31,541 nucleotides of DNA from positions 1-31,541 of the forward strand of contig JAFYOG010000160.1 of assembly GCA_017560285.1 (NCBI GenBank), written 5' to 3'. The stretch comes from Clostridia bacterium (GTDB taxonomy: Bacteria; Bacillota; Clostridia; Oscillospirales; CAG-382). Both the position numbers and the translations under genes were made by a program. The notes below the pieces were generated by a model that searched no databases, was not told the origin of the DNA, and saw nothing but the letters and a program-made list of their open reading frames with translations. Shown here one piece after another: positions 1 to 31,541 of this stretch; position 1 is the stretch's first letter; each line of letters starts with the position of its first letter.

Positions 1-309
1 GATTTTATCGGGGCGGGTGGAAATGCGTATGCTTTCTGCCACACCCTTTTTTATATAGCCCTTTGCGGTTTGCAAAAGCGATTCCATCCTATGCCGTTCT
101 ATGGCGGTAAAGCTGCCGCCGAAAAAGCCTATTTGGCTTTCCTCGGTACCAACCTCTTGGCTTTGCAAAAGGCTGTTAAGCTCTGCCAATTCGGTTTGCA
201 AATCCTTTTCTGCCTGCACGCCCGTTATTTTAACCTGCGAGCAAAAAACGCAACAGTTGGGGCAGCCTGCATGGGGCACGAAGAAAGGTATATTACGATG
301 GGTTTTCAT
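1..309 (-). CDS. Radical SAM protein (Elp3/YhcC-like), N-terminal part, runs off the window start
   Basis: Not in the ORF track; translated by hand from ATG at 309: MKTHRNIPFFVPHAGCPNCCVFCSQ...FFGGSFTAI...IRISTRPDKI. Has the CxxxCxxC cluster motif and is open to position 1. Overlaps the rnc 3' end by 17 bp; this family commonly follows rnc in Clostridia. Confidence 0.85.
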   Translation of the reverse strand, partial: MKTHRNIPFFVPHAGCPNCCVFCSQVKITGVQAEKDLQTELAELNSLLQSQEVGTEESQIGFFGGSFTAIERHRMESLLQTAKGYIKKGVAESIRISTRPDKI

Positions 310-1003
310 TAAGCTCACCAAGCAATATTAACGCTTCTTTTGCCGCCGCTTGCTCTGCTTCGCGCTTGCTTCTGCCCACACCCTTGCCAAGCAGGTTGGA
401 ATTTAGGTAAACCTCGTAGCTGAAGGTTCTGTCGTGGGGGGGACCCTCTTCGCCTACCAAGCGGTATGCAAGAACCTCCTCGGGGGTTTGTTGAACTATT
501 CTTTGCAAGCGGGATTTGTAATCCTCGGTACCGGTTTTGCTAACGGTTTCTAACATTTCGGTTATAAAGGGCAACACGAACGCCCTTGCCCGTTCCATAC
601 CGCCGTCAAGATAGATTGCGGCAAGAACTGCCTCGAAGGCATCGGCAATGGTGCTTTTGCGGTGTCTGCCGCCGGATTCGCCCTTGCCCAAAAGCATATA
701 ATCCCCAAGCTCTAATTTGTTGGAAAAGCTTGCCAACGCATCCTCGCACACCAACGCGGCGCGGGTACGGGTTAAAAAGCCCTCGTCGGCATTGGGAAAT
801 TGGTTAAACAAGAATTCTGCGGTGATAATAGATAAAACCGAATCGCCCAAAAATTCGCTTCTTTCGTTGCTTACGGTAAAGCCGTTTTTGCGGTTTTCGT
901 TGCAATAGGAAGAATGGGTTAGGGCAACCCGCAAATATTCTATATTGTTAAAGCTGTAATTTATTTTATTTTCCAAATGGCTTAGGGGCTTTTCCAAGGT
1001 CAT
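293..1003 (-). CDS. rnc: Ribonuclease III
   Basis: Signature NERSEFLGDSVL, ADAFEAVLAAIYLDGG, C-terminal dsRBD (DYKSRLQ...GPPHDRTF...GRSKREAEQAAA). RBS GGAGG upstream. Confidence 0.97.
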   Translation of the reverse strand: MTLEKPLSHLENKINYSFNNIEYLRVALTHSSYCNENRKNGFTVSNERSEFLGDSVLSIITAEFLFNQFPNADEGFLTRTRAALVCEDALASFSNKLELGDYMLLGKGESGGRHRKSTIADAFEAVLAAIYLDGGMERARAFVLPFITEMLETVSKTGTEDYKSRLQRIVQQTPEEVLAYRLVGEEGPPHDRTFSYEVYLNSNLLGKGVGRSKREAEQAAAKEALILLGELNENPS

Positions 1004-30091: not shown

Positions 30092-30120
30092 GCAAAAAGA
30101 AAAAGCCCCAAGGGGCAAAT

Positions 30121-30171
30121 AAGCAAAAAATAACTCCCAACCGTTAATCTATTTGTTACGGTTGGGAGCTA
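30121..30171 (-). terminator. Intrinsic terminator oriented for a minus-strand transcript
   Basis: Perfect 11-bp stem CTCCCAACCGT / ACGGTTGGGAG. On the minus strand it extends by a G-U pair and is followed by UUUUUUGCUU. Confidence 0.72.
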
Positions 30172-30223
30172 TTTATTTTCTGTCTTGATATCCAACATCA
30201 ATTTTAACCTCTCTTTCATAAGA

Positions 30224-30506
30224 TAGCCAAAGCATTGATACTTTAACCAACCCAAAGGGGCTGAACCGCAATGCTTTTCGGCTTATTTTAATTTCTCGTC
30301 TTCGCAATACGCTCGTATTGCTTCATCCTCCGCATTAAAAACGCTCGAAATTCAACCCCTTTGGGTCAAAGACTTTTTAATTAGAAGATTTTTGCTTAAT
30401 ACAAGGAAAATACGGAGTGAATACCAACGTATTCACGAGTACTTTGACGACGTAGTAACAGAAATCTACAATTAAAAAGTTGATTCAAGTTTCAATGCTT
30501 TGGCTA
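30224..30506. repeat. 283-bp element bounded by 23-bp inverted repeats, with nested hairpins (MITE/REP-mosaic-like or structured RNA)
   Basis: TAGCCAAAGCATTGATACTTTAA (30224-30246) pairs 21/23 with 30484-30506. Inner inverted repeat 30250-30265 / 30351-30366 pairs 15/16. Long imperfect hairpin at 30372-30480. Confidence 0.75.
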
Positions 30507-30770
30507 GGCATCACTTCTGCATTTTTCGCTTTTCGATATACCTTATTAATAGCTTGACCCGTAAGTGGGACGATCTTTGGTTATGAATAAGTTACTTCAT
30601 CGAAGCTTTAGCCCTTTGTGGGAAATGATTTTTGGAGATCACTTTGGTTTGCTTGCTTCTCTTCTTTCTTGCGTTGCCCGTTAAAGTAGTTTTGTTTTTG
30701 TTCCCCTAAAGCTTTACGCTTTTTTGGGGGATTTCTACTTTTTCATTGGACTCACCCTTTCTGTGTCTAT

Positions 30771-30799
30771 ATATTACCATACATATACCCCTATTGCAA
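30771..30799 (-). promoter_or_regulatory. sigmaA-type promoter firing leftward into the gene-free region
   Basis: Minus strand TTGCAA (30799-30794), 17-bp spacer, TAATAT (30776-30771) with extended TGn. Confidence 0.68.
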
Positions 30800-30883
30800 T
30801 ATGCGATATACCCAAATTTTAGGGATATTTTTTATGCACAGTAGAGAAATTGCTGTTTACAGCTTAATTTCGCCCCATTTTCG

Positions 30884-30912
30884 TTGACAACGCAGGTGAT
30901 TTTTGATATACT
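30884..30912 (+). promoter_or_regulatory. Near-consensus sigmaA promoter (P1)
   Basis: TTGACA (30884-30889), 17-bp spacer, TATACT (30907-30912) with extended TGn. Confidence 0.7.
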
Positions 30913-30955
30913 GATTACGTTGGGTGCTTCGCATTCGACTTTTTTATTTTTATTA

Positions 30956-30984
30956 TTGAAAAACAAACTATTATGTGATATAAT
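30956..30984 (+). promoter_or_regulatory. sigmaA promoter (P2) of the PAP2-like gene
   Basis: TTGAAA (30956-30961), 17-bp spacer, TATAAT (30979-30984) with extended TGn. Confidence 0.75.
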
Positions 30985-31029
30985 TCCCTTTACAATTTCC
31001 TAACGTTTTAAAGAAAGGGGGGCGGAATA

Positions 31030-31541
31030 ATGAAAAAGGCTTTTAGCTTTGTAAAAAAGGTTGTTATGGGGCAGGTTAATTGGGTAATGGGGCATAAATA
31101 TGCCTTTATTTTGCTGTTTTGGCCTATACAAACGGTGGTTTACGAGCTTATGCGCATTGCCTTTATGCACGTGCCCGTGGTTATGATACACAGCCCCTTG
31201 GACGATAAAATTCCCTTTTGCGAATGGTTCGCTATCCCCTATTACGTTTGGTATTTCTATATAGCGTCGGTGCTGTTTTACACCATTTACCACGGCAAGC
31301 GGGAATTTTTGCGGGCGGCGTTCCTTGTTATCGGCTGTACCCTTATTCCTATGATATTTTTTGTTATTATGCCCAACGGCATAGAATATTCCATGCGCCC
31401 CGATTTTGAAGCATTGGGCAGAGATAATTTCTGTATCGACCTTGTAAAGGGCATTTATGCAGGTGATTCCCCACCAAGAAACGTTATGCCAAGCATACAT
31501 TGCTCGGTGGCGCTTGCCATTGCCATGGGCTATACCAGGGC
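31030..31541 (+). CDS. PAP2-superfamily membrane protein (AUR1/IPC-synthase-like), runs off the window end
   Basis: Not in the ORF track; translated by hand: MKKAFSFVKK...IHSPLDDKIPFCEWFAIPYYVWY...GIYAGDSPPRNVMPSIHCSVA. NxxPSxH motif, hydrophobic segments, RBS GAAAGGGG. Confidence 0.85.
   Translation, partial: MKKAFSFVKKVVMGQVNWVMGHKYAFILLFWPIQTVVYELMRIAFMHVPVVMIHSPLDDKIPFCEWFAIPYYVWYFYIASVLFYTIYHGKREFLRAAFLVIGCTLIPMIFFVIMPNGIEYSMRPDFEALGRDNFCIDLVKGIYAGDSPPRNVMPSIHCSVALAIAMGYTR

Follow-up and report, generated by a model that had tools for sequence, protein, structure and literature searches.

A small-RNA gene best explained as interrupted by a mobile element in a contig of a Clostridia bacterium

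The stretch of DNA analysed here, called the window, is 31,541 nucleotides (nt) long and comes from a Clostridia bacterium (assembly GCA_017560285.1, contig JAFYOG010000160.1). Near its end, on the minus strand, an interval at about 30121-30799 runs from a promoter to a terminator and is convergent with the rubrerythrin gene rbr. The original prediction was that this interval encodes one structured RNA of about 640 nt, or alternatively a small-protein mRNA carrying a structured insert. We consider it very likely, and the best explanation overall, that the interval is not a single RNA but a small-RNA gene interrupted by a mobile element.

The promoter has a -35 box TTGCAA (30799-30794) and a TG-extended -10 element, TGG-TAATAT (30779-30771), with a spacer of 17 nt between the boxes, all on the minus strand, and transcription is predicted to start at about 30762-30767. 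Homologous units keep TTGAAA or TTGCAA at the first position and TGnTAnnAT at the second, and the promoter, including its TG extension, was aligned with the same elements in 14 relatives and is found in many others. A generic scan did not list it because just 8 of 12 consensus positions are matched. The intrinsic terminator (30121-30177, minus strand) is an inverted repeat with 20-nt arms, 30177-30158 and 30144-30125, which are 90% complementary and followed by a U-run; the generic scan missed it because its loop is 13 nt. In the covariance model R1, introduced below, its consensus stem has 18 pairs, and the stem covaries across the small-RNA family. Both signals had been predicted and are present. 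The same is true of the absence of any open reading frame (ORF) of 60 or more amino acids, the longest between promoter and terminator on either strand being 44 amino acids, and of the convergence with rbr, which is repeated at the orthologous locus of a sister species. The reported lack of RNase P, tmRNA or signal recognition particle (SRP) hallmarks agrees with the search of the window against Rfam 15 at gathering scores, which gave no match to any family, including OLE, GOLLD, ROOL, HEARO, raiA, tmRNA, RNase P, SRP, 6S, T-box and PyrR.

The interval does fold strongly. The 655-nt minus-strand RNA has a predicted energy of -191.8 kcal/mol and a z-score of -5.7; the plus strand reaches a nearly equal -5.0, and therefore folding energy alone gives no choice of strand. 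In the stem 30250-30265/30351-30366 the sole mismatch on the plus strand, C30261/A30355, is a G-U pair on the minus strand, as had been pointed out. What was first noticed thus holds and is not an effect of chance. Divided into parts, the interval gives a z-score of -9.6 for a 283-nt insert, -3.2 for the host gene without the insert, and -1.1 for the host without insert and terminator. Nearly all stems of the interval come from the mobile insert, so the earlier description of a stem-rich interval is right about the strength of the fold and wrong about its extent.

The composite nature of the interval was visible when bases 30100-30830 were used as a 731-nt query against 164 genomes of the same family. 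In relatives the query splits into three pieces: bases 125-407, which are the insert (window 30224-30506), bases 18-127 at the 3' end of the unit, and bases 620-720 at its 5' end. The insert piece recurs at 72-85% identity on unrelated contigs within single genomes, on three contigs in G035, three or four in G039 and three in G090. The two end pieces co-occur about 350 nt apart, without the middle piece, in many genomes. At the sister-species locus (L013) the same neighbours (fur, rubrerythrin and the membrane-protein gene) surround the same RNA gene, and the insert is absent.

Empty and filled sites were also found in public sequencing runs. The empty site, seen as the joint 30223>30505, is present in one DNA contig (X3) and in one RNA-library contig of 304 nt (X15), the latter covering 30169-30751, and a 1220-nt DNA contig (X2) of about 99% identity also spans it. 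One TA remains at the empty site, and at the filled site the 279-nt core is flanked by TA left and right. The filled form was found in a contig of 440 nt (X17) from another RNA library, which covers 30209-30626 with the insert in place, so the filled allele truly exists in an independent sample and probably gives rise to RNA. The insertion is thus polymorphic among near-identical strains, and both forms are present in RNA libraries. The RNA libraries have zero depth at 30781-31300, where the DNA runs continue, but neither uncovered parts nor contig depths of RNA libraries were counted as evidence of transcript level or ends.

Two further differences from the window were seen in these runs. One joint in the X3 run, 30204>30744, in a DNA contig of depth 38, links the 3' module almost directly to the 5' module; it is most likely a short paralog or another species' member at 90% likeness, rather than a deletion allele. 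One extra T after 30553, beside a small hairpin in the body of the host gene, is present in four of four other DNA and RNA runs, and the window's assembly or strain differs from them by this one base.

The idea that the interval encodes one large structured non-coding RNA (about 640 nt, of the OLE, GOLLD or ROOL class) draws on the fold of the whole interval and on the G-U pairs of the minus strand, but it retains hardly any probability. No Rfam family matches, the structured 283 nt are mobile and missing from near-identical strains and from the syntenic ortholog, the remainder folds no better than shuffled sequence, and the empty-site contigs refute it. The second suggestion of the original prediction, an mRNA for a small protein with a structured insert, was essentially right, in that the host is a small-RNA gene with micro-ORFs and the insert is a miniature inverted-repeat transposable element (MITE).

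The insert lies at 30224-30506 on the minus strand, 10 nt upstream of the 3' Shine-Dalgarno (SD) sequence of the host, and was delimited by its repeats, sharp homology ends, empty site and covariation. It consists of the 279-nt core plus the duplicated TA (281 nt), or 283 nt when the TA at 30224-30225 and the TA at 30505-30506 are both counted. Its terminal inverted repeats (TIRs) have 28-nt arms, 89% complementary, with the end sequence GCCAAAGCATT, and between them are two long hairpins at 30250-30366 and 30372-30480; the longest ORF encodes 30 amino acids. In ten other copies the homology stops exactly at TAGCC...GGCTA, the flanks are unrelated and all are bounded by TA. A scan for exact TIRs found 105 copies of 260-290 nt in other genomes, metagenome-assembled genomes (MAGs) titled Acutalibacteraceae, Oscillospiraceae, Ruminococcus and the like, and five copy-rich genomes have 13-24 TIR 13-mers each, with 0-1 in the control. 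The window's own 237-contig assembly holds a single copy and no other TIR, and the MITE pattern had no match in viral contigs. Because it has terminal repeats, a TA duplication, many copies and no ORF, the insert is a MITE.

The fold of the MITE is shared across copies. A total of 92 distinct copies, 57-85% identical to the window's, share a three-way-junction fold with 97% of cells paired. Among 75 pairs, 29 occur as at least two Watson-Crick types, compared to 3-7 when the partners were slid. Among the cells that are not Watson-Crick on the window's minus strand, G-U (338) exceeds A-C (70), which generalises the earlier remark about G-U pairs to the whole set of copies. In the window this G-U-rich strand is co-oriented with the host RNA.

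In overall design the MITE resembles RUP (IS630-Spn1), Correia/NEMIS and ERIC, which are also small, ORF-less, TIR-bound, inserted at TA, multi-copy and intergenic, and are co-transcribed with host RNA as hairpins (PMC2229807), as the present element probably is. It differs in being larger (about 265-300 nt) and in having a three-way junction, strongly covarying internal stems and the excess of G-U over A-C. No sequence similarity to these elements was seen, and no insertion sequence (IS) with matching ends was found. Transposases of the IS630/Tc1-mariner type habitually duplicate TA, as RUP in pneumococcus illustrates (PMC2229807), and on the strength of its TA the present element is tentatively assigned to this type, as a lead.

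Some smaller features of the MITE were noticed along the way. At 30417-30436 on the minus strand is a conserved apical hairpin, GTGAATAC-GTTG-GTATTCAC, with a U-run a few bases on, which looks terminator-like in the scan; the RNA-library contig X17 reads through it. The other arm is topped by a similar hairpin, GCAATAC...GTATTGC. TIR pairs 58 and 157 nt apart, at G307:C44:49102-49159 and G309:C18:44452-44608, are internally deleted mini-forms of the element.

Without the insert the host gene is about 359 nt long on the minus strand. Its 5' module begins with a strong SD, AAAGGGTGAG (30760-30751), followed by the mini-ORF ATG AAA AAG TAG (30746-30735, MKK-stop), and is 94% identical to that of the sister species. 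Across the family the SD takes the form AGAAAGGGUGAUACC or AAAGAGGUGAUACC, 56 of 59 units have the 5' ATG at the same position, and the frame that it opens has 2-4 codons in 54 of these 56, with MYR-stop the commonest; AGG is the last sense codon in 30 of 56. The 5' SD presumably pairs with the usual 3' tail of 16S rRNA over more bases than an ordinary SD does; the window's own assembly has no 16S rRNA, and the usual anti-SD sequence is assumed. In the minimum-free-energy fold, the last sense codon and stop of the mini-ORF lie in the 5' arm of a hairpin, AAAGUAG...CUACUUU (30683-30741). Other members, judged by eye, have their mini-ORF stop within a CAGG-UAAAAA-CCUG or AAGG-UAAAAA-CCUU hairpin. 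By eye, the 5' module has some stretches complementary to the 3' module or to the loop of the mid-hairpin, but there is no covariation across members.

The body between the two modules varies from 56 to 470 nt in the family, and its alignment is rich in gaps. It contains a small hairpin, GTCCC-ACTTAC-GGGTC (30556-30571, minus strand), which in the alignment changes its stems around an RCYUAN loop. Upstream of the 3' SD, at a distance of about 60-80 nt, a similar hairpin whose loop reads RCUUAN was found in about 22 of 59 units; the window's unit is one of them, with a distance of 72 nt in the empty-site form. The bodies bear on another reading, in which the interval is a decayed protein-coding gene plus a generic repeat, the outcome that had been named as fatal to the idea of a structured RNA. 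A repeat was indeed found. The body is purine-rich and gives frames rich in K, R, E and Q, and one frame of the ortholog is 84 codons long. However, the members compared have no body frame in common, which speaks against the host being a protein gene in decay; conservation is seen at the two ends rather than in the body, which varies in length. This reading is therefore very improbable.

The 3' module has an SD region, GAAAGAGAGG (30208-30217, minus strand), which is invariant across the family, a short spacer, and then an ATG-Leu-Asp-A..-Lys start. In the window the micro-ORF that follows is ATG TTG GAT ATC AAG ACA GAA AAT AAA TAG (30169-30198, minus strand), encoding MLDIKTENK, and an in-frame TTG at 30201 stands where some relatives have an additional ATG. 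The frame is exactly 9 codons long in 112 of 118 distinct units, and ends with TAA in 52, TGA in 51 and TAG in 9. The 5' arm of the window's terminator includes AAT AAA TAG, which are codons 8-9 and the stop of the micro-ORF. This arrangement is kept in the family, where the 5' arm of a long terminator takes in the last two codons together with the stop triplet, and the 3' arm shows matching changes. The covariance model R1, built on this module, matches the window's copy at full length over 30227-30119 with 89.1 bits (E 1.3e-16); the rest of the window holds no comparable match.

Family matches were found at more than 120 loci. R1 matched 21 of 151 genomes sampled evenly from 30 families of the order, with at least 60 bits in 10 families and 1-2 members per genome. 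The exact motif pattern occurs in 44 of the 164 genomes of the window's own family, and in none with the reversed control. The matching records are gut and rumen Clostridia of many families, titled Acutalibacteraceae, Oscillospiraceae, Faecousia and the like. The window's own genome has a second, diverged member on contig C140 (L267, about 228-500, minus strand), which is about 240 nt long, scores 54.5 bits with R1 and has no MITE. This paralog has the promoter, a 3-codon MGN-stop frame, a 9-codon frame encoding MLEPNNFIG, and a stop inside the terminator arm; geometry is conserved here rather than peptide. Plasmid and phage collections gave no match to the RNA motif or the MITE, and seven matches to the RNA-motif pattern in viral contigs, all within coding sequence, were put down to chance. 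The family has no match in Rfam 15, and full-text searches for the peptide, the motif and the TIR gave only unrelated plant barcode papers.

The genes around the units do not form a pattern. Of 105 units, 61 are followed by a gene in the same orientation and 44 by a convergent one, and no neighbour gene recurs across the family. Ten co-oriented downstream proteins were unrelated to each other, and included transglutaminase-like, YbaK-type, nitroreductase, MntP, SpoU, TraX and amidohydrolase proteins. The host is a stand-alone gene, independent of its neighbours. These counts bear on the possibility that the RNA is a cis-acting leader or attenuator that senses antibiotics or translation stress, like vmlR, with read-through controlling the next gene or acting antisense to rbr. 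A short upstream ORF (uORF) with an SD and then an intrinsic terminator is the layout of vmlR (PMC9226507), and more than half of the units do have a co-oriented gene behind them. But the 44 units convergent with the next gene include the window's and its ortholog, the co-oriented genes are of unrelated kinds and no neighbour recurs, so we regard this possibility as improbable.

The vmlR leader likewise has an SD and a 3-codon frame within a hairpin close to its 5' end, and an intrinsic terminator follows at a distance (PMC9226507). In B. subtilis the vmlR uORF encodes MIN, with variants MDN, MDK and MRK, and the identity of the tripeptide matters little (PMC9226507); in the present family the tripeptide varies too. 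The vmlR leader controls the gene behind it, whereas the RNA described here has no constant downstream gene and is often convergent with it, and the second 9-codon frame ending in the terminator is present in this family and not in vmlR. Another relative in design is rnTrpL/peTrpL of Sinorhizobium meliloti, a short terminated transcript with a small frame, where rnTrpL works away from its own locus and demonstrates that a leader-like RNA can itself be the gene product (PMC7298713). It is made by attenuation before trpE(G) and starts at the ATG (PMC7298713), unlike the present family, which is attached to no operon and has two frames and a promoter of its own; the two were not seen to resemble each other in sequence.

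The 5' module alone has other parallels. The strong SD of hbs, where initiating ribosomes block RNase J1, and the STAB-SD of cryIIIA are also unusually strong and close to the 5' end (PMC5737220), but those elements protect ordinary mRNAs. The SD of the present gene belongs to a 3-codon frame of a small RNA, and its stabilising role is presumed. Minigenes (lambda bar; AGA/AGG) likewise have a strong SD, 2-4 codons and a stop (PMC2490762). For the present RNA there is no evidence of the peptidyl-tRNA drop-off or toxicity of minigenes, and the place of AGG in a small hairpin may perhaps explain why it is conserved. Because each of the known systems lacks a defining feature, the present family is not a member of the vmlR, rnTrpL or minigene types.

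Taken with these precedents, the layout leads us to propose, tentatively and at somewhat less than even confidence, that the host is a ribosome-engaged, stabilised, trans-acting RNA. The strong 5' SD and its mini-ORF lie within about 20 nt of the predicted 5' end, and a ribosome held there would shield the RNA from 5'-exonuclease; in B. subtilis, RNase J1 is blocked by ribosomes that initiate at an SD of exceptional strength (PMC5737220). Because the distance from ATG to stop is a constant 9 codons and the stop is buried in the stem, each ribosome translating the second frame would have to open the terminator stem. The 3' structure or the lifetime of the RNA would then follow ribosome traffic, and the variable body would be the trans-acting part. 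The MITE would be carried along as a self-closed domain whose 28-bp closing stem brings the flanks together, and may be tolerated for that reason. The second, intact paralog may also relax selection on the interrupted copy.

Several observations weigh against this account or parts of it. The RNA evidence consists of assembled contigs, which have no strand and no ends, and in which DNA carry-over is possible. Both SDs have a predicted mean pairing probability about equal to that of the rest of the RNA. For the MITE, no transposase element with matching ends was found in the window's own genome, the five copy-rich genomes, plasmids or viral contigs, and the five copy-rich genomes have no TIR pair at an IS-like distance. 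The structured strand of the MITE is usually antisense to neighbouring genes (64 vs 21 upstream and 62 vs 20 downstream), as counted at loci L151-L255, where the copies are interrelated and independence is overstated. Finally, across families the 9-codon frame hardly changes at its synonymous sites (GAT always, and TTA in 109 of 118, in a set of which part was chosen by a pattern that fixes these bases), and the peptide varies freely at residues 4, 6 and 7.

Because its synonymous sites are almost invariant, there is an RNA-level constraint on the 9-codon frame, besides or instead of coding. This makes a wholly non-coding role a serious rival, in which the SD-like stretches, the AUGs and the frame are binding sites for the 30S subunit, a protein or another RNA, or are structural elements, and neither elongation nor synthesis of a peptide takes place. 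The variable residues, the different peptide of the paralog, and the complementarity of the 5' module to the usual 16S tail beyond that of an ordinary SD (again assuming the usual anti-SD) all suit such a role. It explains less well why the length of 9 codons is so constant and why a stop of one of the three kinds always follows while its paired arm covaries. It also leaves aside the proper spacing of the ATGs from their SDs, and the Leu codon, which is limited to TTA, TTG and CTG in a BLAST-derived set free of the pattern constraint. We think the non-coding role unlikely on balance, with a chance that deserves to be taken seriously.

If the frame is translated, the main role of the RNA could instead be that of an mRNA whose product, a bioactive peptide of 9 residues (ML-D-x-K...), acts in trans like peTrpL. 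The conservation of M-L-D-[ITN]-K across families is consistent with this, and there is a precedent in the 14-amino-acid peTrpL, which acts in trans (PMC7298713). However, the paralog in the same genome encodes a peptide beginning MLEP, another member encodes LEPANSMK, only 4-5 residues are fixed, and the nucleotide invariance exceeds what a peptide would need. We find a bioactive peptide quite unlikely as the main product.

A number of other candidates were tried and rejected. Rfam matches below threshold on terminators (mir-246, Hrs12, ar9 and BsrG, with E up to 10) were set aside, and a type I toxin-antitoxin of the BsrG kind was dismissed on a score of 23.9 bits against a gathering score of 55 and the lack of a hydrophobic frame. 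Rfam 15 found nothing relevant on 13 related loci. Likenesses of AGGGUGAUACC to a T-box motif and of AGAGAGGUU to PyrR binding loops were not borne out by the Rfam T-box and PyrR models. MLDIK (30198-30184) resembles the N-termini of SerS, but the genome's own serS (L263:1502) begins MIDIKFLREN, with an unrelated upstream region and no T-box, and the likeness is probably chance.

Outside the unit, the membrane-protein gene at 31030 is preceded on the plus strand (30884-30984) by two TG-extended promoters close to consensus, TTGACA-17-TATACT and TTGAAA-17-TATAAT. The first of them is followed at once by a hairpin of terminator type (30919-30939), which could yield a transcript of only about 30 nt or be a promoter-proximal stop. 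In a Faecousia MAG, a group II intron domain (RF00029, 45.6 bits) was found on the minus strand of L053:7773-7842, about 1.5 kb from a family member; it has no bearing on the unit described here.

Altogether, these results remove a false lead, as there is no new giant non-coding RNA in the interval, and they document another member of a small-RNA family together with a paralog in its own genome. The family is apparently undescribed and is common in poorly studied gut and rumen Clostridia. For a transposon relic, the MITE is conserved in structure to an unusual degree and with a strand bias, and its polymorphism provides a natural pair of insertion and empty site within one species, with both forms in RNA libraries. 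The two micro-frames, one of which ends inside the terminator, suggest a ribosome-coupled RNA without an attached gene. More speculatively, and we would still bet against it, the host may belong to a widespread class of stand-alone RNAs which are active only with ribosomes on a 3-codon minigene and on a 9-codon frame running into its own terminator, and which would act in trans to report or buffer the status of ribosomes, tRNA or antibiotics. If that is true, the window would offer a natural allele pair of such an RNA with and without a co-transcribed, strand-specifically structured MITE.

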